Below are positions 3,451 through 36,443 of a stretch of 64,000 nucleotides of DNA, piece by piece. Below the pieces are notes generated by a model. That model saw only the letters and a program-made list of their open reading frames with translations, did not search any database and was not told the DNA's origin. This stretch comes from Escherichia coli (lineage in GTDB: Bacteria > Pseudomonadota > Gammaproteobacteria > Enterobacterales > Enterobacteriaceae): assembly GCF_022846255.1 (NCBI RefSeq), contig NZ_AP025682.1; one strand, 5' to 3'. Both the position numbers and the translations under genes were made by a program. Within the stretch, counting starts at the first letter, position 1; each line of letters opens with the position of its first letter.

Positions 3451-4369
3451 TACATTATTAACGTTACGCGACGTCCATATCAATTTCCCTGCCCGAAAAA
3501 ACTGGCTTGGTAAAACTACGGAACATGTTCATGCCATCAATGGTATTGATTTACAGATCCGTCGTGGTGAAACCTTAGGGATCGTCGGTGAGTCAGGCTG
3601 CGGCAAAAGCACCCTCGCACAGCTTTTAATGGGTATGCTGCAACCGAGCCACGGGCAGTACATCCGTTCAGGATCACAACGCATTATGCAGATGGTGTTT
3701 CAGGACCCGCTCTCTTCGCTTAATCCGCGCTTACCGGTGTGGCGCATCATCACGGAACCGCTCTGGATTGCTAAGCGTAGTAGTGAACAACAGCGGCGAG
3801 CGTTGGCAGAGGAGCTGGCTGTGCAGGTGGGTATTCGTCCGGAGTATCTCGACCGCTTGCCTCATGCGTTTTCCGGCGGGCAGCGGCAACGTATCGCCAT
3901 TGCCAGAGCACTCTCTTCGCAGCCTGACGTGATTGTGCTTGATGAACCAACCTCGGCGCTGGATATCTCCGTGCAGGCGCAGATCCTCAATTTACTGGTA
4001 ACGCTACAGGAAAATCGCGAGCTGACTTATGTGCTGATTTCACACAATGTCTCCGTGATACGTCATATGAGCGATCGGGTGGCGGTGATGTATCTCGGAC
4101 AGATTGTGGAACTAGGAGACGCGCAACAGGTGCTGACAGCTCCGGCACATCCATACACCCGATTATTGCTGGATTCCCTCCCCGCCATTGATAAACCGCT
4201 GGAGGAAGAATGGGCATTACGTAAAACGGATCTGCCGGGAAACCGCACGTTTCCGCAAGGCTGTTTTTTCTACGAACGTTGCCCTCTGGCAACCCACGGA
4301 TGTGAAGTCCGACAATCATTAGCAATAAGGGAGGACGGACGTGAGCTCCGGTGCTGGCGGGCGCTGTAG
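3443..4369 (+). CDS. ddpF: D,D-dipeptide ABC transporter ATP-binding protein
   Basis: ORF track extends to 3389, but the conserved protein begins VSDTLLTLRD at a GTG preceded by aggagg and overlapping the ddpD stop; Walker A GESGCGKS and signature FSGGQRQR. Confidence 0.85.
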   Translation: MSDTLLTLRDVHINFPARKNWLGKTTEHVHAINGIDLQIRRGETLGIVGESGCGKSTLAQLLMGMLQPSHGQYIRSGSQRIMQMVFQDPLSSLNPRLPVWRIITEPLWIAKRSSEQQRRALAEELAVQVGIRPEYLDRLPHAFSGGQRQRIAIARALSSQPDVIVLDEPTSALDISVQAQILNLLVTLQENRELTYVLISHNVSVIRHMSDRVAVMYLGQIVELGDAQQVLTAPAHPYTRLLLDSLPAIDKPLEEEWALRKTDLPGNRTFPQGCFFYERCPLATHGCEVRQSLAIREDGRELRCWRAL

Positions 4370-10676: not shown

Positions 10677-13600
10677 TTACGCCTTCTCGATGTTGACTAA
10701 GAACGCTTTATATTCCGGCGTTTGCGAGTTTGCATCACCGACATTCGGCGTCAGAGTGTTAGCGATATAACCTTTACGCGCGACACCCTCAAAGCCCCAG
10801 TGGATCGGAATACCCACCGTTTCAACCTGCTGACCGTTTACATTCAGCGGTTTCAGACGGCGCGTTACCACCGCCACCGCGCGGATAAAGCCACGCTTGC
10901 TTGAGACAGTGACACGATCGCCATTATTAATGCCTTTCGCCGCCGCCAGCGTTTCGCTGATTTCCACAAACTGTTCCGGCTGAGCAATTGCGTTGAGCAA
11001 CGCGTGCTTGGTCCAGGTGTGGAAGTGCTCGGTCAGACGATAGGTCGTACCCACATACGGGAACTGCTCTTTTTTACCCATCCGCAGCGCGTCTTGTTCA
11101 TACAGACGAACGACCGGGTTAGACACCACGTTCGGATGCAGCGGGTTAGTGCCCAGCGGCGTTTCAATCGGCTCGTAGTGTTCCGGGAACGGACCTTCCG
11201 CCATTTTGTTGATGGCAAACAGGCGTCCCATCCCTTCCGGCTGCATGATAAACGGTCCGGTTGGTGTACCTGGCGCGGCATTGCCGAAGTCCGGAATATC
11301 GTTACCCGTCCACTTGCTGCCGTTCCACTGAATCAGCATCCGTTTCGGATCCCACGGTTTACCGTTGATATCCGCCGAAGCACGGTTGTAGAGTACGCGA
11401 CGGTTGAGCGGCCACGCCCAGGCCCATCCCAGCGTATTCCCCAGACCAGATGGGTCAGAGTTATCGCGGTTAGCCATCTGGTTGCCCTGCTCTGTCCAGC
11501 TACCGGTGTAGATCCAGCAAGACGATGCGGTTGTACCGTCATCACGCAGATGCGCAAAGCTACTCAGCAACTGACCTTTCTTCGCAATCAGCACGCCATT
11601 GGCATCATAGAGATCTTCCAGCGCGTAGCCGTTGTTCTCTTTCGCTACTTCGTCAGATTGCGGTTCGTGCGGCTGCTTGTAGTTCCAGCTCATCTTCATC
11701 AGCGGTTCTACGCCTTTACCACCCTCGGCCTGGTACAGCTCGCGCAGATGATGGTAGATACCCGCCAGAATTTCGCCGTCGTTACGTGCTTCGCCCGGCG
11801 CGTCCTGACCTTTCCAGTGCCACTGCAACCAGCGACCGGAGTTAGCGATAGAACCATCTTCTTCAGCAAAGCAGGTCGAAGGCAGACGGAATACTTCAGT
11901 CTGAATAGATGCCGGATCGACATCGTTCGACTCGCCGTGGTTCTGCCAGAAGGTAGAGGTTTCAGTCACCAGCGGATCGATAACCACCATGTACTTCAGT
12001 TTGCTCAGGCAGCTCACCACTTTGTTTTTGTCCGGGAAGGACGCAACCGGGTTAAAGCCCTGGCAGAAATAACCGGTGACTTTGCCTTCGTCCATCATGT
12101 TGAAATACTTGATGACGTCGTAGGTCTGGTCCCACTTCGGCAGCCAGTCGTAGCCCCAGTTGTTCTCTTTCTGCGCGGCATCGCCGTAGAAAGATTTCAT
12201 CAGGCTAACGAAAAACTTCGGATAGTTGCTCCAGTAGTTCACCTGATCAGCCAGCGTCGCTTTCGGCGTGTTCGCTTCCAGATACGACTGCAAATCAACC
12301 TGTTTTTCTGACGGCAGCGTCAGATAACCTGGCAGGCTGGTAGAGAGCAGGCCTAAGTCAGTCAGGCCCTGAATGTTGGAGTGACCACGCAATGCGTTCA
12401 CGCCGCCACCGGCCATACCCATGTTACCGAGCAGCAACTGGATCATCGCCATCGTACGGATGTTCTGCGCACCCACGGTGTGCTGCGTCCAGCCCAGCGC
12501 GTACAGGAAGGTGGTTGTGCGATCCGGTGCGCTGGTGGAGGCCAGCACTTCACACACTTTCAGGAAGTCGGCTTTTGGCGTACCGCAAATGTTTTCTACT
12601 ACGTCCGGCGTGTAGCGGGAAACGTGCGCTTTCAGCAGATTCCATACACAGCGCGGATGAGTCAGCGTGTCATCGCGTTTCGCATAGCCGTTTTCATCGA
12701 ACTGATAGTTCCAGGACGACTTATCGTATTGACGTTTTTCAGCGTCGTAGCCGCTGAACAGACCGTCTTCGAAAGCAAAATCATCACGCACCAGCAGGCT
12801 GGCGTTGGTGTAATGCTTAACGTATTCGGCGTTGATTTTGTTGTTTTCGATCAGGTAGCGCAAAACGCCAGACAGGAACGTAATGTCCGTACCGGAACGA
12901 ATAGGTGCGTAAATATCCGCCACAGAAGCGGTACGCGTAAAACGGGGATCGACAACGATCAAGGTTGCATCGTTGTTGTTTTTCGCTTCCATCGCCCAGC
13001 GGAAACCGACGGGATGCGCTTCAGCAGCGTTACCGCCCATCACCATTACGACGTTAGCGTTTTTGATATCCACCCAGTGGTTGGTCATCGCACCGCGACC
13101 AAATGTTGGAGCAAGACTTGCTACCGTTGGTCCGTGTCAGACGCGCGCCTGGTTGTCTACCGCCAGCATCCCGAGGGAGCGGGCAAATTTTTGAGTCAGC
13201 ATCCCGGTTTCGTTGCTGGCACCGGAAGCACACAGCATACCGGTAGAAAGCCAACGGTTTACCGTTACGCCCTGCTCGTTCTTTTCAATAAAGTTAGCGT
13301 CACGGTCGGCTTTCATCAGCTTCGCAATACGGGAGAATGCTTCTTCCCAGCTAATGCGCTGCCATTTGTCAGAACCTGGCGCACGATATTCCGGGTAGCG
13401 CAGACGGTTTTCGCTGTTGACGTAATCCAGCAAACCGGCCCCTTTCGGGCACAGCGCACCACGGCTTACCGGATGATCCGGGTCACCTTCAATGTGATAA
13501 ATCGCTTCTCTGGCGTTTTTCGCGCCATCACCCAGGCTATACATCAATAGCCCGCAACCTACGGAACAGTATGTGCAGGTGTTACGGATCTCTTTCGCGC

Positions 13601-26441: not shown

Positions 26442-28418
26442 ATGCAGCTTAATCATATCGTTAAAAGTCTGCTAATAACGGGATTATTCACCACCAGTTC
26501 TTTACCTCTCCTCGCGGCGGAAGCTCCTAAAGACGCCACCGCAGCCACGCAACAAGCAAACAATTTACTCTACAACCAGTTGCCGTTTGCCGATAACACT
26601 GACTTTACTGATGCCCATAAAGGTTTTATTGCCCCTATCCCTCAAGACGTGATTAAGGGCGAACAAGGGAATGTTATCTGGGATCCACAACATTACGCTT
26701 TTATCAAAGAAGGCGATAAAGCCCCTGATACGGTGAATCCGAGTTTATGGCGTCAGGCGCAACTGATAAATATCAGCGGGTTATTCGAAGTAACTGAAGG
26801 TGTCTATCAGATTCGCAATCTCGATCTATCAAATATGACCATCATTGAAGGCAAAGAGGGTATTACCGTCGTTGATCCCCTTGTTTCAGCAGAAACAGCC
26901 AAAGTGGGTATGGATCTCTATTACAAAAATCGCGGCAAAAAACCGGTAGTGGCGGTTATCTATACACACAGTCATGTCGATCACTACGGTGGTGTTCGTG
27001 GCGTAATTGATGAAGCTGACGTTAAATCAGGCAAAGTTAAAATCTATGCGCCAGCCGGATTTTTGGAGGAAGCCGTTTCCGAAAACATCATGGCTGGCAA
27101 TGTTATGAGCCGACGAGCCAGTTATATGTATGGCAACTTATTGAAACCTGATGTTAAAGGCCAGGTGGGGGCTGGACTGGGAACGACTACTTCAGCAGGA
27201 ACAGTCACGTTGATTGCTCCTACTAACTACATCACCAAAACCGGACAAATAGAAACTATTGACGGGTTGACTTATGATTTCCTGATGGCGCCAGGTTCTG
27301 AAGCGCCTTCTGAAATGCTGTGGTTTATTGAAGAAAAGAAACTGATCGAAACCGCTGAAGATGTCACGCACACCCTTCATAACACCTATTCGCTGCGTGG
27401 GGCTAAAATTCGCCAACCGCTGCCGTGGTCAAAATATATTAATGAAGCTCTCAATTTGTGGGGTGATAAAGCCGAGATTATTCTCGCTCAACATCACTGG
27501 CCAACCTGGGGCAACGATAACGTGGTCAAACTGCTTAAAAGCCAGCGTGATTTGTATCGTTACATCAATGATCAAACTCTGCGCATGGCTAATCAAGGGA
27601 TGACCCGTGATGAAATTGCCGCAAACTTTAAACTGCCCTCTTCACTGGCTAACACCTGGGCGAATCGCGGCTATTACGGTTCGGTAAGTCATGACGTGAA
27701 AGCAACTTACGTGCTTTATCTCGGCTGGTTTGATGGTAACCCCGCGACGCTTGATGAACTGCCGCCAGAAGAAGGCGCAAAAAAATTCGTCGAGTATATG
27801 GGCGGTGCTGATGCCATTTTACAGAAAGCCAAACAGGATTATGACCAGGGTAATTTCCGCTGGGTTGCCCAAGTTGTTAGTAAGGTGGTGTTTGCCGATC
27901 CAAACAACCAGGCAGCGAGAGATCTGGAAGCTGATGCGCTTGAGCAGTTAGGCTATCAGGCTGAATCTGGGCCGTGGCGTAATTTCTATCTCACTGGTGC
28001 ACAGGAATTGCGTAATGGCGTACAAAAATTACCAACACCAAATACTGCCAGCCCAGACACCGTGCGTGCGATGACGCCGGAGATGTTCTTTGATTATCTT
28101 GCCGTCCATATTAATGGTGAGAAAGCGGCAGATGCCAAAACCGTGTTGAATTTCGATTTTGGTGAAGATGGCGGCACCTATAAAGTGGAGCTTGAAAATG
28201 GTGTTCTCAATCATACCGCTGGTGTAGAGGCTTCGGATGCTGATGCCACTATCACTCTGTCTCGTGATGTATTGAACAAAATTGTACTGAAAGAAGAGAC
28301 GCTGAAAGAAGCCACGGCCAAAGGAGATGTCAAAATTACTGGCAATGCGGAAAAACTCAACGAGCTGTTAGGTTATATGGATAATTTTGAATTTTGGTTC
28401 AATATAGTGACACCATAA
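26442..28418 (+). CDS. secreted alkyl/aryl-sulfatase-like metallo-beta-lactamase-fold hydrolase
   Basis: 658 aa with N-terminal signal peptide (..SLPLLAAEAP) and metal-binding motif HSHVDHYGG; SdsA1/YjcS-like architecture; not at this position in K-12 as I recall. Confidence 0.75.
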   Translation: MQLNHIVKSLLITGLFTTSSLPLLAAEAPKDATAATQQANNLLYNQLPFADNTDFTDAHKGFIAPIPQDVIKGEQGNVIWDPQHYAFIKEGDKAPDTVNPSLWRQAQLINISGLFEVTEGVYQIRNLDLSNMTIIEGKEGITVVDPLVSAETAKVGMDLYYKNRGKKPVVAVIYTHSHVDHYGGVRGVIDEADVKSGKVKIYAPAGFLEEAVSENIMAGNVMSRRASYMYGNLLKPDVKGQVGAGLGTTTSAGTVTLIAPTNYITKTGQIETIDGLTYDFLMAPGSEAPSEMLWFIEEKKLIETAEDVTHTLHNTYSLRGAKIRQPLPWSKYINEALNLWGDKAEIILAQHHWPTWGNDNVVKLLKSQRDLYRYINDQTLRMANQGMTRDEIAANFKLPSSLANTWANRGYYGSVSHDVKATYVLYLGWFDGNPATLDELPPEEGAKKFVEYMGGADAILQKAKQDYDQGNFRWVAQVVSKVVFADPNNQAARDLEADALEQLGYQAESGPWRNFYLTGAQELRNGVQKLPTPNTASPDTVRAMTPEMFFDYLAVHINGEKAADAKTVLNFDFGEDGGTYKVELENGVLNHTAGVEASDADATITLSRDVLNKIVLKEETLKEATAKGDVKITGNAEKLNELLGYMDNFEFWFNIVTP

Positions 28419-28432
28419 ATTTACTGCATACC

Positions 28433-28455
28433 GGGCAGGTATCCTGCCCTTTTTT
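28433..28455 (+). terminator. Rho-independent terminator after the sulfatase gene
   Basis: gggcagg-tat-cctgccc hairpin followed by a T6 run. Confidence 0.6.
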
Positions 28456-28464
28456 GGTTAAAAA

Positions 28465-29562
28465 ATGGCTGAACGAAGAAAAACGCATCACTCATGGAAA
28501 ACCCGCCGCGATATGGTTATTCGCGGCATGACGATTAGTTTGCCATGGTTTGCTTTTATCAATGTCAGTTTTGCATTGATAATTTTGCTGCGCCGTGTTC
28601 TGTTTAATGACCTTACTCCACCCTGGTTAAATGAAAAAAGCCTTATACATTCTATTGATATATCTGCAACGGGTATTCTGCTGATTTGCAGTGGTTTACT
28701 ACTCATCCCTCGGCAAAAAACATTACCTATCCAGGTGCTATTAGTTGCCCTGAGCCTGCTATGGTCATGGTGTAGTTATCACTTTATTGCGTACTGGACG
28801 CTGCAGTTTGCTTATCCACTATGTGTATTATTAATGCTTAGTGGCGTTGTCGCACTTTATTTCCATACCCCATCATTGCTCGCATTTGTCATTCCCTTAT
28901 GGTTCACCACTCCAATAGCGAGTCTTATGCTTAATCAACAGATCAATATTCATTTTGCTGTTGTATGGTGTATTTTTTCACTGGCGCTATATGGTGGGCG
29001 ACTCATTTTGTTACGTTGGTTTGAAGAAGCATGGGTACAAAACAGTTATAACAACCAGTTAATTAATCGCCTTGATGCATTAGCACATCGCGATCCTTTA
29101 ACTGGGATAGCAAACCGACGTGCAATGAACAGTATCTTACACGACGCGATGGATAACGGCGGGTCATTTGCTCTTATTATGCTGGATGTCGATTTTTTTA
29201 AACGTTACAACGACACTTACGGGCATCCTGCTGGGGATCGTTGTCTAATACAAGTTGCCGACGCTCTACAGCGTTCAACTCGCCAGTCGGAGGATGTTGT
29301 TGTCCGTTATGGTGGCGAAGAGTTTGCCATCATACTTTTTAATGCAACATTGCCGGAAGCAGAGACGGTAGCAGCCAGAGTGAAGCAAGAACTTAAACTG
29401 GCAGCTATCCCACATCAGGCATCTGCTGTTAATGCATTCGTTACGGTTAGTCAGGGGATTACCTGTTCTGCTCCCGCAAAAACGGCTGAACAAATTATTT
29501 CAGATGCCGACGCTGCGTTATACCGGGCGAAAGAAAGTGGGCGAAATCGATGGGCTTTATAA
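28465..29562 (+). CDS. membrane-anchored diguanylate cyclase (GGDEF domain)
   Basis: 365 aa: about 190-aa N-terminal region with several predicted TM helices, then GGDEF domain with active-site RYGGEEF; precise start codon uncertain (several in-frame Met). Confidence 0.8.
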   Translation: MAERRKTHHSWKTRRDMVIRGMTISLPWFAFINVSFALIILLRRVLFNDLTPPWLNEKSLIHSIDISATGILLICSGLLLIPRQKTLPIQVLLVALSLLWSWCSYHFIAYWTLQFAYPLCVLLMLSGVVALYFHTPSLLAFVIPLWFTTPIASLMLNQQINIHFAVVWCIFSLALYGGRLILLRWFEEAWVQNSYNNQLINRLDALAHRDPLTGIANRRAMNSILHDAMDNGGSFALIMLDVDFFKRYNDTYGHPAGDRCLIQVADALQRSTRQSEDVVVRYGGEEFAIILFNATLPEAETVAARVKQELKLAAIPHQASAVNAFVTVSQGITCSAPAKTAEQIISDADAALYRAKESGRNRWAL

Positions 29563-29589: not shown

Positions 29590-30328
29590 TCTCCTCGCTT
29601 AACAAGGGCTGACGGAGGGTAATAATTGTCTATAGCTATCTTCTTAGCGATGTCTTTCTGGTATCACATTGGATCGGTGCAATTATTTTTCCTTTAATAC
29701 CCATTATGTTAAGAAATTCAGAACCAGCTGTAATCTCATTGTTTTTTTCATTCGTCTTGATCTTCCAAGGAATCTGACTGTGCATTATTGAGAACACACT
29801 AATAACGTGAATCGCTCCCTTGCGACGACTCTTGTCATAAGAGTACCGGAGCGTTTTTCCATCAATTGCAATGACGTCTTTATCATCTGAAGAATGGCAG
29901 TCAAGCATCCAGTTAATAAAGCACTCATGAAATTTTTCAGGACTGATACAGGATACAACTCTGGCAATGGTATCGTGAACAGGAATACCATTATCAAAAT
30001 CACCATATTGCTTCAAAAAATCGAGATGTGTTTCCCCAAAATCCTCTATATCTTCCCAGCCTTCTGCACCCGAAATAACGACACAAATAGTCAACAGTAG
30101 AATATCCGATAATTTATGCTCCACTTTCCAGGCTTGTCTGTAATCGGGGATAATAGAAATATGTTCCATCAATTTTTTAAGTTCCATTTTGTTCTCCTTA
30201 ATTATGTAAAGAGTATTTGATCATGTATAAGCAATAAAAAACAGCTTTAGGTAATGAGGAATATCTCAATTTTTAAACATAAAATGCGAATTATTTAGTA
30301 CAAAAAAGCAGCGTTACGTGATCTTTCC
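29590..30328 (-). mobile_element. truncated, diverged ISAs1-family (H-repeat) element copy
   Basis: 183-aa ORF (29636..30187) is similar but not identical to the N-terminal part of the H-repeat transposase at 31727..32554, then diverges; its 5' flank (about 30190..30328) repeats 32560..32695. Confidence 0.6.
29636..30187 (-). pseudogene. ISAs1-family transposase, truncated copy
   Basis: N-terminal about 150 aa align with the second copy, C-terminal tail diverges and terminates early. Confidence 0.65.
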
Positions 30329-30348
30329 ATGGAAAAGAGAGTAATACA

Positions 30349-30364
30349 CTGATTTTTAACGCAG
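30349..30364 (+). promoter_or_regulatory. candidate LexA (SOS) box upstream of the symE-like gene
   Basis: CTG-N10-CAG (ctgatttttaacgcag) with AT-rich spacer about 65 bp upstream of the ATG; deviates from CTGT/ACAG at two conserved positions; K-12 symE is SOS-regulated. Confidence 0.25.
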
Positions 30365-30427
30365 ATTGCCAGTGCTACCAACACTGACAATCTGCTCACC
30401 ACAAGCAACTAACAGAGGTAGTTAATC

Positions 30428-30747
30428 ATGGCTGAACACGATATTACGCCAGAAGTCGCCATTTCCAAAACACAGCGCCGCTATAAAGTCGGCTATGTCA
30501 GAGCCCGCCACATAAACAGCAAACCACGTACTACTCACGACACCCCAGCCTGAACCTTAAGGGCGACTGGCTGAAAGAGGCCGGATTTGATACCGGACGG
30601 GGTGTCACGGTGAAGATTTCGGAGGGGTGCCTGACCATCATCGCTGACAGTGACGAGGTGCAGGAACTGCGGGAGGAACTTTATCAGGTTAAACAGGTGG
30701 TTAAGGGGATGCGGAACGGGATGTTTAGTGTGCTGAACGAGAATTAA
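30428..30747 (+). pseudogene. symE-like type I toxin gene (AbrB-fold), apparently frameshifted
   Basis: 41 codons from ATG 30428 (MAEHDITPEVAISKTQRRYKVGYVRARHINSKP...) end at TGA about 30551; the SymE core LNLKGDWLKEAGFDTGRGVTVKISEGCLTII... continues in the -1 frame to TAA about 30745; restoring one C near 30550 would fuse them. Confidence 0.6.
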
Positions 30748-30797
30748 ATAATAAAAAAGCCGGGGAGATTTAAAATCTTCCCGGCTTTCTTTATCAT

Positions 30798-31100
30798 CTA
30801 AAAAGGTAATAATCCTCTAATAGGAGAAAATTTTGTAATATCAATACCTTGTAATTTAAAGTAATTAAAAGCATCTTCTATATTGGAAAACGCACTAATT
30901 TCTTCAGTTGCATAATCTTCGAACACTTCCATTTTATTTTCTGGTATTTTGAAAAAATAGGTATTGTATTTTTCATCCTGTTTTTTAATGGCATATTGGA
31001 AAAAATAACTTTCACCATTTATTTCCTTTATCTCATCAAAACCTCTAACCTTACCATTCTCTATAGCAACAATTAATTTTTCAATAGACAAATCAACCAT
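30798..31100 (-). CDS. putative immunity protein for the upstream toxin-like ORF
   Basis: 100-aa acidic, low-GC ORF; its ATG overlaps the stop of the upstream ORF (ATGgtTGA), the usual toxin-immunity arrangement; no sequence family recognised. Confidence 0.45.
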   Translation of the reverse strand: MVDLSIEKLIVAIENGKVRGFDEIKEINGESYFFQYAIKKQDEKYNTYFFKIPENKMEVFEDYATEEISAFSNIEDAFNYFKLQGIDITKFSPIRGLLPF

Positions 31101-31440
31101 CTATATCTATCCTCACCATTGTCCCATCAGAACGTTTAATATTTATATGAGGCAAAGAACCATGCCCTGTGCCTTTATGGTCATCATGACCATATACACG
31201 ACCAGTATTAGAATCAATAGGGTAATCTTTCCTATAACGGACAGTACCATCTCTTTTCTTAAATTGTTCCATCTTATGTTTTTTTCTAATACCGGCGGCA
31301 TCCTGCGAACTGATCCCTCTTACTTTTTGAGCATCAGGAAAGGCCTCCATCAATAAATCATGGGCTTCCTGTTTTGATTTAACTGTGACAACGGTTCCTT
31401 GAGGCCCCAGGGCAAGATTACGAAAGCCCGCTCCCCGCAA
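31093..31440 (-). CDS. putative orphan polymorphic-toxin C-terminal domain (3' fragment of an IS-disrupted gene)
   Basis: Track ORF begins inside the ISAs1 end with a TTG; first ATG gives [10 protein letters not shown]... (about 31350); C-terminal His-rich motif [21 protein letters not shown] is reminiscent of HNH/beta-beta-alpha-Me nuclease toxins; low GC. Confidence 0.4.
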
Positions 31441-32695
31441 GGACTGACGCCAGATAGTTTCTGTCCATGGCTGCTTTTCGCATCTTACGTCTTAACCCTG
31501 CCTTGAATACCTTATCATTCGTCAAAATATTAATAGCGATGTGCCGTATCCCTGAAAATAATTCTGCTGCATTTCCTCTTCTTATTTTGCAGTCGTCTTC
31601 ATTCATTACCACGTCCAGACGCCAGTGCAGCTTATTCTCCACGTGCCAGTGGTTTCGGATTGCTGTGGCGAACTTCTCTGCGGTTAAATCAGCAGAACTG
31701 ATATAATATCTGACCGTCATTTCTGGCTATTTCTTTTGTTCTGCTATTATGGACCGAAAGGAGACTGCCACGCATAATTTCTTCAGTCCTTTCCATTCAA
31801 ACGTGAAATCAATAAGTTCATCAGGGACATCGCAAACAATATGAAGACGGATTTCTTCTCTGCCGTGACTTTTTTCACTAATTGCGTAACTGTCATGCTC
31901 TGGATTATTCAATTCTTTCAGCGGAAATTTTTCCTCGAAGGCTTTATTTAGCCGCCCCTGGTTTCCTTTTACAGCGAATAAATAATCACCTCCCTGTTTT
32001 TGTATCTTCTCTGCAATATCTTTCTGGCAACCCATCGCATCAGTTGTGATGATTTTTCCTTTAATATCCAGCATGTTAAGAAGTTCAGGGATAGCTGTAA
32101 TTTCATTGGATTTCTCATCCGTCCTGATCTGTCCGATGACCAGACTGTGCATTGTTGAGAACGCACTAATGACATGAATCGCTCCCCTGCGGCGACTCTT
32201 GTCATAAGAATGTCGGAGCGTTTTTCCATCAATTGCAATAACGTCTTTATCATCTGAAGAATGGCAGTCACGCATCCAGTTAATAAAGCACTCGTGAAAT
32301 TTTGCAGGACTGATACAGGATACAACTCTGGCAATGGTATCGTGAACAGGAATACCATTTTCAAAATCACCATATTGCTTCAAAAAATCGAGATGTGTTT
32401 CCCCAAAACCCTCTATATCTTCCCAGCCTTCTGCACCAGAAATAACGGCACAAATAGTCAACAGTAGAATATCCGATAATTTATGTTCCACTTTCCAGGC
32501 TTGTCTGTAATCGGGGATAATAGAAATATGTTCCATCAATTTTTTAAGTACCATTTTGTTCTCCTTAATTATGTAAGGAGTATTTGATCATGTATAAGCA
32601 ATAAAAAACAGCTTCAGGTAATAAGGAATATCTCAATTTTTAAACATAAAATGCGAATTATTTAGTACAAAAAAGCAGCGTTACGTGATCTTTCC
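31400..32695 (-). mobile_element. ISAs1-family (H-repeat) insertion sequence
   Basis: Transposase reading frame of about 379 codons (31418..32554) with the [26 protein letters not shown]-terminal signature; upstream boundary set where the two copies' flanks diverge (after ...gtgatctttcc). Confidence 0.7.
31418..32554 (-). pseudogene. ISAs1-family transposase, split by a frameshift near 31720-31727
   Basis: 275-aa N-terminal ORF (31727..32554) and 100-aa C-terminal ORF (31418..31720) are contiguous in different frames. Confidence 0.7.
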
Positions 32696-32871
32696 CTGGT
32701 TATCGCTGTTCTTTCCCCTTGACCAGGCAAATATTTTTCATTATGGATCCATACCTTGCTATAATCAATTGTATTCTCAAAAATCGATCTGGCCAATGTT
32801 AATTCACCAGATGTCATTCTCCTTAATGACATATCCTTTCCCCTGGAAATAATATCTTTCAGATAAAACAC
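32662..32871 (-). pseudogene. 5' fragment of a gene truncated by the ISAs1 insertion; N-terminus resembles DUF4157-type domains
   Basis: 69-aa ORF whose last about 12 codons are encoded by IS-end sequence; motif LARSIFENTIDYSKVWIH resembles the E..fG.DfS.VRVH N-terminal signature of DUF4157 (a recollection, not verified). Confidence 0.35.
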
Positions 32872-33769
32872 AAACGCTCTTTGATGTTCAACATTCCCAC
32901 TTTATACAGTATTGATGGCATCATCTTCATAGAAAATGAAATCAAAGCAAGTTATCAACGTTTCCCATTACGATTTCTTAACATTAATTCTCAGCATTTT
33001 TATTAATCTATTTTCAATATCAATAACCGATGCAAATGATTACGCAGTTAACATAATCCTTATCAATTGATTAATATCTGTAAACGCTACCGCCCCACCC
33101 TGATATCTTAATCTGCACATAGCAATCTTAACGTTATGCCCCATACATTAGTAATGTAAATTAAGAATTCGGAATATATCAAATTCACTTCATAAATTAA
33201 TATCGGGAATGATATACACATTAATTATATTGAAGTAATGGTTTAAGAGTTGTAATGACCATGGAACAGGACTAATTCCAGAAACTCCTGTTGGGCAATA
33301 GCGCGTTTATCATCCTACATGCCTCTTACATTTTTTAGCCTTTTCTTTAACGTCAGCAATTGGCTCATTTAATCAGCAATGGTATTGGTATTTGGCGTAT
33401 TACCCCTGAAACCCGTCATGTGCTAGCACCTCACTATTCAATGAGCCAACCACGCCAGTGTCCACTGCAACCACTGGCGTTCAGAGCGACGAACGAGTGG
33501 CGCAAGAGTAGGACTGCCGTCGGGCATCATCAAACCAATAGTTGTTGTTTCCGTCAAAATTTCATCAGGTTGCTATTTGGTTGCCGGCCGCCTTTATCCC
33601 CACATATTTATAGCGGGATTATTTTGCATCGTTACACGATAAAAGGTAGGATTCTGCGCCGACAGTTATACCCATAAAGAATAATGGTGAATCTTGTCAT
33701 CGCCAGGATGAATAAACATTGTTCATGGCAACTTATATGACTTTTTCATTAAAGCAATCAGGGAGAGCA

Positions 33770-35269
33770 ATGAGTAAACACGACACCGACACTTCAGATC
33801 AACACGCCGCGAAACGCCGCTGGCTTAATGCCCACGAAGAGGGGTATCACAAAGCGATGGGCAATCGCCAGGTACAGATGATCGCCATTGGCGGCGCGAT
33901 TGGCACCGGCTTGTTTTTAGGTGCAGGAGCCCGACTGCAAATGGCGGGGCCAGCACTGGCACTGGTCTATTTAATCTGCGGCCTGTTTTCATTTTTTATT
34001 CTGCGTGCATTGGGTGAGCTGGTGCTACACCGCCCTTCCAGTGGCAGTTTTGTCTCTTATGCCCGTGAGTTTTTAGGAGAGAAAGCCGCTTACGTTGCAG
34101 GCTGGATGTACTTCATCAACTGGGCGATGACGGGGATTGTCGATATTACCGCCGTCGCTCTGTATATGCATTACTGGGGTGCGTTTGGCGGCGTGCCGCA
34201 GTGGGTCTTTGCGCTCGCTGCGCTGACCATCGTTGGTACCATGAATATGATTGGTGTGAAATGGTTTGCGGAGATGGAGTTCTGGTTTGCGCTTATTAAA
34301 GTGCTCGCCATCGTGACCTTTTTGGTCGTGGGTACAGTGTTCCTCGGTAGCGGTCAGCCGCTGGATGGCAACGCCACTGGCTTTCATTTAATTACCGATA
34401 ACGGCGGCTTTTTCCCCCACGGTTTGCTGCCTGCGCTGGTGTTGATTCAGGGCGTAGTGTTTGCTTTTGCCTCCATTGAAATGGTGGGTACAGCGGCCGG
34501 AGAATGTAAAGATCCGCAGACCATGGTGCCTAAAGCGATTAACAGTGTGATTTGGCGTATTGGTCTGTTTTACGTCGGCTCCGTGGTGTTGCTGGTTATG
34601 TTATTGCCGTGGAGCGCGTATCAGGCGGGGCAAAGTCCGTTCGTGACGTTTTTCTCTAAACTGGGTGTGCCATATATCGGCAGCATTATGAACATTGTGG
34701 TGCTGACCGCTGCCCTCTCCAGCCTGAATTCAGGTCTGTACTGCACCGGGCGTATTCTGCGCTCGATGGCGATGGGCGGTTCCGCACCGAGTTTTATGGC
34801 GAAAATGAGTCGTCAGCATGTGCCGTATGCCGGGATTCTGGCGACACTGGTTGTGTATGTCGTCGGCGTATTCCTCAACTATCTGGTGCCGTCGCGCGTA
34901 TTTGAGATTGTGTTGAACTTCGCGTCGCTGGGAATCATCGCTTCATGGGCGTTTATCATCGTGTGCCAGATGCGCCTGCGTAAAGCGATTAAAGAAGGCA
35001 AAGCAGCGGATGTCAGTTTTAAACTGCCTGGCGCGCCCTTCACTTCCTGGCTGACATTACTGTTTTTACTGAGTGTCCTTGTGCTGATGGCGTTCGATTA
35101 CCCGAACGGGACTTATACTATCGCGGCGCTGCCGTTTATCGGTATTCTGCTGGTTATAGGCTGGTTTGGTGTGCGCAAACGCGTTGCTGAAATTCACAGC
35201 ACTGCGCCAGTCGTCGAGGAAGATGAAGAACAACAGGAAATTGTGTTTAAGCCTGAAACGGCGAGTTAA
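33770..35269 (+). CDS. ansP: L-asparagine permease (APC family)
   Basis: 499-aa product beginning MSKHDTDTSDQHAAKRRWLNAHEEGYHK; track ORF starts upstream at 33719. Confidence 0.95.
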   Translation: MSKHDTDTSDQHAAKRRWLNAHEEGYHKAMGNRQVQMIAIGGAIGTGLFLGAGARLQMAGPALALVYLICGLFSFFILRALGELVLHRPSSGSFVSYAREFLGEKAAYVAGWMYFINWAMTGIVDITAVALYMHYWGAFGGVPQWVFALAALTIVGTMNMIGVKWFAEMEFWFALIKVLAIVTFLVVGTVFLGSGQPLDGNATGFHLITDNGGFFPHGLLPALVLIQGVVFAFASIEMVGTAAGECKDPQTMVPKAINSVIWRIGLFYVGSVVLLVMLLPWSAYQAGQSPFVTFFSKLGVPYIGSIMNIVVLTAALSSLNSGLYCTGRILRSMAMGGSAPSFMAKMSRQHVPYAGILATLVVYVVGVFLNYLVPSRVFEIVLNFASLGIIASWAFIIVCQMRLRKAIKEGKAADVSFKLPGAPFTSWLTLLFLLSVLVLMAFDYPNGTYTIAALPFIGILLVIGWFGVRKRVAEIHSTAPVVEEDEEQQEIVFKPETAS

Positions 35270-35320
35270 TTGCAAAACTGCCCGGCTACGTGCCGGGCAA
35301 ATTCAGACTACTGACGAAGG

Positions 35321-35345
35321 TGCCGGATGCGGCGTGATAAAAGTC
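35321..35345. repeat. REP element
   Basis: tgccggatgcggcgtga matches the REP consensus. Confidence 0.45.
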
Positions 35346-35381
35346 AGGCAAGTCTCTCCATTTTCACCCTCGCCATATCTA

Positions 35382-36443
35382 TTACAGCGCAATACGAATC
35401 ACATCGTCCGGCTGGGTAGCTTCCTGCTGTTTAGTGGATTTTTGTTTCACACTGACATACAGCGTTTTGCCATCGGCAGACAGCGCCAGGCTGTTCGGAT
35501 GAGTCGGCGTATCGAACGTTTTCACCACTTTATAGCTTTTCGCGTCAATCACACTGACTTTACCTGCCTGACGATGCGTCACGTAGGCTTCATTACGCGC
35601 GGGGTTAAACAGCACAGCCAGTGATTCCGGTGCCGCAACCTTCGCCAGAATATTGCCATTACGGGTATCGACCACTAACACTTCTGCCGCTTTAGAATCG
35701 GTGATAAATGCACGCTGCCTGGCGGTATCAAGGCTAATGTTGATAAAGAAGTGCTCTTTGCCGTCATCCAGCAGCTTTTTACGGCTGAGGATTTTATTGT
35801 CGGCGGTGTCGATGGTAATCAATTCGCCGTCAGCGTTAGTGGTGTAAAGACGTTTGCCTTTGCTATCCAGCGCCAAACCGGTACTCATTTTACCGGTGTT
35901 CTGGATGGCGGTTTTCAGTTTGATATTCTCGCCATCAACGACCCAAATCACGCTCTCTTTACCAATACCACTGATGTAAACGGTGTTCGTGGCATCATCA
36001 GTTACCAGCTCACGCGGCTGCAACGGACGCACTTCTTCGGTACGTTTACGCTCATCAAGCACCAGACGTCCTTTCACTTCGCCCGTTTTGGCATCTATCG
36101 CCGTGACCGCACTATTTACGGTGTTACCAAACCACAACGTCTGAGTCGTGTTATTGATGGTGGCACCAAACGACTTGAGATCGTTATGGATCGCCTGCGT
36201 CACTTCCAGAGTAACCGGATCAAGACGATAAACCACACCGCCTTTATCCAGTTTGCGGCTTTGCGAAGTGGCGAGCCACAGCGCGTTTTCTTGCTGGCTA
36301 TAAGCCATTTCGTAGGCACCTTTACCTACCGCTTTACGCAGCATTTCTTCTGCGGCCTGCGTACTGAATGATGAAGCAACGAGCAATGAACCTAACAGTA
36401 ATGAACCACGCAGGCGCGATGAAAACAGATGACGTAAATGCAT
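35382..36443 (-). CDS. yncE: seven-bladed beta-propeller protein (PQQ-like repeats), exported
   Basis: 353 aa with signal peptide, matching remembered YncE. Confidence 0.9.
   Translation of the reverse strand: MHLRHLFSSRLRGSLLLGSLLVASSFSTQAAEEMLRKAVGKGAYEMAYSQQENALWLATSQSRKLDKGGVVYRLDPVTLEVTQAIHNDLKSFGATINNTTQTLWFGNTVNSAVTAIDAKTGEVKGRLVLDERKRTEEVRPLQPRELVTDDATNTVYISGIGKESVIWVVDGENIKLKTAIQNTGKMSTGLALDSKGKRLYTTNADGELITIDTADNKILSRKKLLDDGKEHFFINISLDTARQRAFITDSKAAEVLVVDTRNGNILAKVAAPESLAVLFNPARNEAYVTHRQAGKVSVIDAKSYKVVKTFDTPTHPNSLALSADGKTLYVSVKQKSTKQQEATQPDDVIRIAL

Follow-up and report, generated by a model that had tools for sequence, protein, structure and literature searches.

A yncG relic and the probable orphaned leader of a type VI secretion cargo island upstream of ansP in Escherichia coli

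Analysis of a 64,000-nucleotide stretch of E. coli DNA (the window; contig NZ_AP025682.1) revealed that positions 32872–33769, which a preliminary description had presented as an AT-rich, ORF-poor spacer upstream of ansP, are probably a divergent intergenic region made up of four pieces with separate origins, including a conserved core with a putative regulatory role; only one of the pieces is likely still working in the source strain. The locus itself is a case of ordinary decay that would not surprise a specialist, and the outcome is a corrected annotation, in which a yncG relic and an apparently orphaned island leader account for a '0.9 kb empty spacer' and a 39-aa 'hypothetical protein', and a protein annotated in relatives as 'type IV secretion protein Rhs' appears in fact to be a VgrG2b-like metallopeptidase effector. 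The conserved leader element, which precedes vgrG-rhs islands in most E. coli, provides in addition a modest, testable lead. The features in and around the interval are as follows:

31406..32699, − strand: ISEc1 (ISAs1 family, 'H-repeat') with a disrupted transposase (NCBIfam; comparison with K-12 ydcC)
32700..32832, − strand: truncated type VI secretion system (T6SS) metallopeptidase effector gene, first ~44 codons (homologue in AR_0077)
32872..33074, − strand: proximal leader, GC 0.29, poorly conserved (40% of columns invariant)
32936–33070, + strand: 44-aa hydrophobic ORF, probably no gene
33075..33260, − strand: conserved core of the vgrG-island leader, 186 bp (88% invariant, six loci)
33261..33332, no strand assigned: short linker of GC 0.43 that separates the yncG relic (3′ end) from the island leader
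33333..33587, − strand: yncG relic, glutathione S-transferase family (tblastn with K-12 YncG)
33588..33769, + strand: ansP upstream region with promoter(s), 5′ UTR and ribosome-binding site (conservation; K-12 data)
33770..35269, + strand: ansP, L-asparagine permease gene (99.4% aa identity to K-12 AnsP)

The window was compared with the corresponding loci of E. coli C11, FHI_NMBU_03 and AR_0077, of E. whittamii and of Escherichia sp. E1V33 (six loci from three Escherichia species). The GC content of the interval is 0.380 compared with 0.499 for the window, which places it among the lowest 2% of 898-bp windows. Specifically, GC amounted to 0.323 at 32872–33332 (the lowest 1% of windows, with values of 0.29 to 0.32 across 32872–33260), 0.475 at 33333–33587, and 0.390 at 33588–33769. 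The earlier claim of AT-richness thus held only for the left half, and the picture of one homogeneous AT-rich spacer had to be given up, since ~255 bp consist of a pseudogene of normal GC content. Among the six loci, the proportion of invariant columns was 88% in the core, 88% in the ansP upstream region, 68% in the yncG relic, and 40% at 32872–33074; that is, the core is conserved as strongly as the ansP promoter region. Alignment to K-12 (including blastn) assigned 33622–33900 to ansP, 33466–33567 to yncG, and 33081–33202 to the yncH-rhsE spacer. The linker at 33261–33332 showed no K-12 homology by blastn, and no feature was recognized in it.

The right edge of the interval is exact, with the ATG of ansP at 33770. 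The left edge at 32872 was set by an ORF beginning with GTG; since the start annotated in relatives (MSLRR...) corresponds to 32832, the non-coding stretch is really ~937 bp long. The single ORF of at least 60 aa within 32872–33769 (33360..33677, + strand, 105 aa) is antisense to the yncG relic and is interrupted by a frameshift or a stop in three of the five relatives (C11, E. whittamii, and Escherichia sp. E1V33). Its stop-free length of 108 aa, compared with a shuffle mean of 76 and reached by 3% of the shuffles, is slightly long, which fits the antisense of a former gene. The ORF-poor character of the interval was confirmed, and the proposed lack of a conserved protein-coding gene in it was supported.

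The piece nearest to ansP, 33588–33769, would be the native ansP control region, driving ansP rightwards. From 33622 onward, this region is 94.7% identical to K-12, the last ~77 bp being identical, and a ribosome-binding site (GGGAGAG) precedes ansP at 33761–33767. The genes after ansP are yncE and pqqU, the same as in K-12, with the window in the reverse orientation. In K-12, an E-sigma-S ChIP-seq peak (1524000–1524199) lies just upstream of ansP, and transcription start sites of this gene have been placed at 1524035 and 1524044 in the older K-12 numbering (PMC4447067), i.e., ~30 and ~40 nt before the ATG by approximate coordinate conversion. A simple consensus promoter scan returned no + strand site within 33588–33769. 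Taken with the K-12 ChIP and start-site data upstream of ansP (PMC4447067), the conservation of the last 150–180 bp supports the suggestion that the interval holds the ansP promoter.

Directly upstream of ansP, on the minus strand and divergent from it, as yncG is in K-12 and O157, we found the remains of a yncG copy. A tblastn search with K-12 YncG aligned residues 54–100 to 33447–33587 (E = 3e-10, 51% identity, with an in-frame stop) and residues 175–200 to 33333–33410 (E = 0.066 in the window, 9e-6 in E. whittamii); at the DNA level, O157 yncG matches the two pieces at 68–70%. Codons 1–53, codons ~101–174, and the yncG promoter are missing, and ~118 bp of the K-12 ansP-yncG spacer were lost along with codons 1–53. 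In-frame stops and missing codons leave no intact frame of ~205 codons, so this copy is a pseudogene relic and not a gene. The relic in E. whittamii retains ~13 further codons, and, being common to three species, the yncG scar is old. The 39-aa 'hypothetical protein' that PGAP calls in AR_0077 falls inside the relic, and its ORF is broken in E. whittamii and E1V33. yncG appears to adjoin ansP divergently in most E. coli, and deletions here would have taken its promoter, its first 53 codons, and its middle. The deletion scar that had been suspected is therefore present, as alignment to K-12 showed: yncG has lost its 5′ end and its middle, and yncH is absent from the window locus.

The AT-rich half of the interval has a different history. 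In AR_0077, the leader segment is 99.1% identical and lies upstream of an intact leftward operon, and FHI_NMBU_03 and E1V33 likewise have the operon, which runs in the order 176-aa effector gene, 118-aa gene, vgrG, DcrB-related gene, and large Rhs gene. Since an intact operon lies beyond the same segment in relatives, the AT-rich half can be read as the leader sequence belonging to a T6SS cargo island; the preliminary description, in treating it as plain spacer, had missed a leader of a divergently transcribed T6SS cargo operon. The AR_0077 effector (L006 7431–7961) matches the effector domain of Pseudomonas aeruginosa VgrG2b (PDB 6h56, E = 1.2e-18) and carries the motif HEMMH, and the 118-aa gene (L006 7078–7434) resembles a family of T6SS immunity lipoproteins, though at 30.9 bits it stays below the cut-off of 43. 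Together, the first two genes of the island look like an unrecognized effector-immunity pair ahead of vgrG, judging by these matches. The first gene of the island is currently annotated as 'type IV secretion protein Rhs' or 'hypothetical'.

In the window, this operon is cut by an insertion sequence. The element at 31406..32699 is 96.4% identical over 1,314 bp to the K-12 ydcC H-repeat, matches NCBIfam transpos_ISAs1 (NF033564, E = 5e-91), and has its transposase split into ORFs of 275 and 100 aa. Its right end was placed at 32699, where the similarity to a second partial copy (29637–30332) stops; relatives lacking ISEc1 align from ~32700. The gene fragment that had been noted as IS-truncated is therefore real. 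It ends before the HExxH motif of the effector, its open frame reaches upstream to a GTG at 32871, and the same fragment is annotated in C11 as an incomplete pseudogene. Overall, 32872–33332 would be the leader/promoter region of a horizontally acquired leftward T6SS cargo operon, and ISEc1 with an associated deletion would have removed the operon past codon ~44 of its first gene, leaving the leader an orphan.

Further analysis revealed that the ansP locus exists in two forms: the first has intact yncG and yncH followed by vgrG-rhsE, and the second (type II) has the yncG relic followed by effector gene, immunity gene, vgrG, and Rhs gene. The second leader type is carried by ~767 genomes (~14% of E. 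coli genomes), of which ~229 keep the leader whole. Among 5,426 complete E. coli genomes searched, not one covers at least 80% of 30200–33800 in one place; coverage is best in the cow strains C10 and C11 (75% at ~95.6% identity). The arrangement seen in the source strain is thus missing from this set, and the strain may be a Shigella or belong to an unsampled lineage. ISAs1-family ends occur at 32699 in the window and C11, at 33098 in AVS0747 and Ecol_AZ153 (the 81%-coverage class of this junction includes an O25b:H4-ST131 strain), at ~33084 in AST216 (a 155-bp solo end), and at ~32968 in E. whittamii (a diverged 199-bp end). The presence of such ends at four or more points of the leader suggests repeated IS-linked erosion of the site. 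In addition, the 16 bp that follow K-12 ydcC (~11652–11667 of the K-12 locus) are identical to the effector gene at 32700–32715, and this shared junction suggests that the K-12 H-repeat derives from the same insertion into a type-II island, though K-12 now has the other island type.

To the left of the interval lie ISEc1, an orphan Rhs C-terminal tip with a putative immunity gene, a SymE/SymR-like module, and a partial ISAs1 copy. On the minus strand at 30798–31440, a 115-aa ORF overlaps a 100-aa ORF by 8 nt, and neither ORF has a Pfam or NCBIfam match; from its position beside the IS and a reading of its sequence, we take the former to be an orphan Rhs C-terminal toxin tip, and the latter would be its immunity protein. 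Rfam isrA (RF01385) was detected on the minus strand at 30499–30617 (96.4 bits, above the gathering threshold of 51), a SymR-like match on the minus strand at 30358–30433 (48.3 bits) fell below its gathering threshold, and a long partial 'Ssr1' match overlaps both. As a whole, 30358–30617 looks like a SymE/SymR-type module beside Rhs remnants. The second partial ISAs1 copy (29637–30332) is 91.8% identical to 32003–32699 and holds a truncated transposase ORF of 183 aa (29636–30187), and the two ISAs1 copies bracket the orphan Rhs tip, its immunity gene, and the SymE-like module. Farther left, between yddH and the ISAs1 remnant, 26442–29562 encodes an alkyl sulfatase (Alkyl_sulf_dimr, Alkyl_sulf_C) and a MASE5-GGDEF diguanylate cyclase, in contrast to the K-12 counterpart of this interval, which contains pptA only.

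The part of the leader with the widest distribution is the center of the core. Positions 33081–33228 are shared with other vgrG-rhs islands, showing 74–77% identity to the leaders at the cusS and yncH loci; among 5,426 complete E. coli genomes, 4,628 (85%) contain a match, at one to three places each and mostly at 74–77% identity. Besides the ansP region, this is the sole part of the interval that is widespread in E. coli. The core contains a near-invariant block at 33084–33105, ACGCTACCGCCCCACCCTGATA, which reads GTGCAGAT..TATCAGGGTGGGGCGGTAGCG on the operon (minus) strand. At the cusS locus (three strains), the core lies ~340–360 bp upstream of vgrG, and at the O157 ansP locus it lies between yncH and vgrG, ~360 bp upstream of the latter. 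In K-12, it is found in the yncH-rhsE spacer, whose 98.8% identity to the O157 spacer between yncH and vgrG indicates that K-12 lacks vgrG at this place. Between loci, homology sets in at the core and, among leaders of the K-12/O157 type, extends as far as the ATG of vgrG; the island type of the window shares with the K-12/O157 leader only the core. In islands of the second type, the stretch that separates the immunity gene from vgrG was also checked for the remainder of the K-12/O157 leader, which proved to be absent there.

Outside Escherichia, the 21-nt block TATCAGGGTGGGGCGGTAGCG (operon strand) occurs together with GTGCAGAT in Superficieibacter electus. There, the block (3840–3930 of its locus) is situated ~230 bp upstream of a run of small AT-rich ORFs, of which two have N-termini suggestive of signal-peptide or lipoprotein sequences; no vgrG lies within 3.3 kb of the block.

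We think that the core is probably a DNA-level regulatory region at the upstream edge of the island. It is the sole non-coding sequence common to both island types and starts exactly where island homology starts. It would carry upstream regulatory sites of the island, among them a site of H-NS nucleation and perhaps a promoter; the regulatory role, the silencing by H-NS, and the promoter positions are all features that we infer. Sigma-70-like consensus matches were found within the core (TTGATA-18-TACATT, 33182..33153) and in the proximal leader (TTGATA-16-AAAAAT, 33023..32996). A conserved TTGATA(A/T)ATT in the core matches the published high-affinity H-NS motifs at 9 of 10 positions. The candidate H-NS motif is TTGATATATT at 33173–33182, a 9/10 match being weak evidence in DNA of such AT content. 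Consensus matching for Fur, CRP, and sigma-54 gave no good sites in the core.

Data from K-12 are consistent with this reading. The K-12 yncH-rhsE spacer, of which only ~124–145 bp are shared with the window sequence, binds RpoD holoenzyme and H-NS in genomic SELEX (PMC3946193), and a PhoB ChIP peak ~250 bp from the K-12 element is flagged as lying within an H-NS-bound region (PMC10294691). A promoter predicted in K-12 (TTGACT-17-TATTAC; PMC3946193) lies ~85 bp outside the shared core and is disrupted by a 12-bp gap in the cusS-type leaders of O157 and CRE1540. The preliminary view of the spacer as silenced, H-NS-bound DNA was thus borne out in part, in that its AT-rich half is acquired island DNA and H-NS binding has been reported for the K-12 counterpart (PMC3946193, PMC10294691). 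Proximal and core leader segments together have the low GC content given above. An RpoN genomic SELEX peak, 'yncH>ydcD' at 1527534 (PMC8743547), initially seemed to coincide with the element. Judging by the position of pspF/pspA relative to the peak at 1366070, however, the peak list appears to use the older K-12 numbering; on that reading, the RpoN peak falls inside rhsE and was set aside as irrelevant.

A more specific proposal, which we put forward only tentatively, is that the core may be a dedicated, undescribed cis-regulatory module of vgrG-headed T6SS islands that is read by a specific regulator beyond H-NS. If true, the regulator of this module would coordinate the unrelated cusS and ansP islands across Escherichia and at least one other enterobacterial genus. 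Little is understood of what activates auxiliary T6SS islands in E. coli, and the leader element offers a defined target.

Three alternatives to a regulatory core were weighed. Apart from the ansP promoter, the stretch might be inert debris, its core appearing conserved through recent recombinational spread; we regard this as unlikely. Such spread would be in keeping with the similarity of the six type-II loci in the core (92–99%) and in the flanking ansP DNA (99% over the first 130 bp in E. whittamii), yet within the same alignment 88% of the core columns are invariant compared with 40% and 68% in its flanks. The operon has been destroyed in the window and in many lineages, with ISAs1-family ends at four junctions, making the leader dispensable, and no motif or structure has been identified in the core; however, the core is the only segment kept (~75%) between two otherwise non-homologous leaders at two chromosomal loci, and its 21-nt block survives in another genus.

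Quite unlikely, in our estimation, is that the core serves as a recombination or integration boundary, a joint for swapping vgrG-rhs islands, and not as a transcriptional element. Homology between the cusS and ansP islands does start exactly at the core, the outer side being locus-specific, and the core remains next to cusS in a strain that has IS5 in place of vgrG. However, no inverted or direct repeats flank the core, ARAGORN detected neither a tRNA nor a tRNA-like sequence, the loci examined show no integrase associated with the core, and a promoter region could just as well lie where the core does, 250–360 bp upstream of the first gene of the island. A search for repeats or MITE-like ends returned only short pairs at chance level and no tandem repeats. 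GGAGCGGTAG resembles the start of tRNA-Asp; the idea of a tRNA-like or att site that it raised was dropped when ARAGORN found nothing.

That the spacer encodes a small RNA or a small protein, through either the 44-aa ORF or a mini-ORF (MCR..YQGGAVA) inside the core, is highly improbable. The 44-aa ORF at 32936–33070 is intact in all five loci that have the segment and gave a sub-threshold Pfam match to MotB_plug (22.6 bits against a cut-off of 24), the only match when all small ORFs were searched against Pfam and NCBIfam; but its pN/pS values range from 0.2 to 1.06 (0.5 to 1.06 for most pairs) and no AGGAG-like Shine-Dalgarno sequence was seen ahead of it, and it is probably not a gene. The mini-ORF keeps its start and first ~12 codons between island types, but every type has a different length and C-terminus for it, E. 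whittamii lacks its ATG, and substitutions in the core show no 3-base periodicity (12/11/12). Overall, the core contains no conserved ORF. As for the unannotated small RNA that had been proposed, a scan of 30000–36000 with Rfam 15 (E ≤ 1) produced no match within 32872–33769, and no terminator-like site was found in that interval. When three versions of the core were folded on both strands, z-scores ranged from −0.62 to +1.05, i.e., no stable fold, and the alignment fold of seven core copies reached −2.35 kcal/mol with 0 compensatory pairs (two of the seven sequences carried a wrong flank, which leaves the shared block unaffected). The proposal of a small RNA is thus unsupported, and a DNA-level regulatory region remains our preferred reading of the core.

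Finally, we compared the locus with known systems. Among the H-NS-silenced promoters of acquired T6SS DNA in E. coli are the bidirectional promoter of the EHEC T6SS and the region 'h3R' (hcp3-vgrG3) (PMC13141884). Like h3R, the leader is an AT-rich, putatively regulatory region that in intact islands lies upstream of vgrG, and binding of RNA polymerase and H-NS has been reported for its K-12 counterpart; unlike the window element, h3R sits in the main T6SS cluster between hcp3 and vgrG3. Since O157 genomes have only two copies of the element, which are those at the cusS and ansP loci, h3R is a different sequence. The C-terminal metallopeptidase of VgrG2b (PDB 6H56) aligns with the island effector, which has an HExxH motif but is encoded by a free-standing gene and is not an extension of VgrG, and the window copy retains only its first ~44 codons, from which the motif is absent. 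A further parallel is the K-12/O157 locus (ansP, yncG, yncH, leader, vgrG2, rhsE), which occupies the same site, has the same ansP upstream region (~95%), and also bears a vgrG-rhs island on the far side, with a leader element of 124–145 bp that is ~75% identical. In comparison with it, yncG in the window is a relic, yncH is absent, the rest of the leader is unrelated, the operon has been removed by ISEc1, and the island is of the second type, with a metallopeptidase effector gene and an immunity gene before vgrG. The ISEc1/H-repeat copy in the window shows no substantial difference from its K-12 counterpart: it is 96% identical to ydcC and, as in K-12, lies beside Rhs-related genes.
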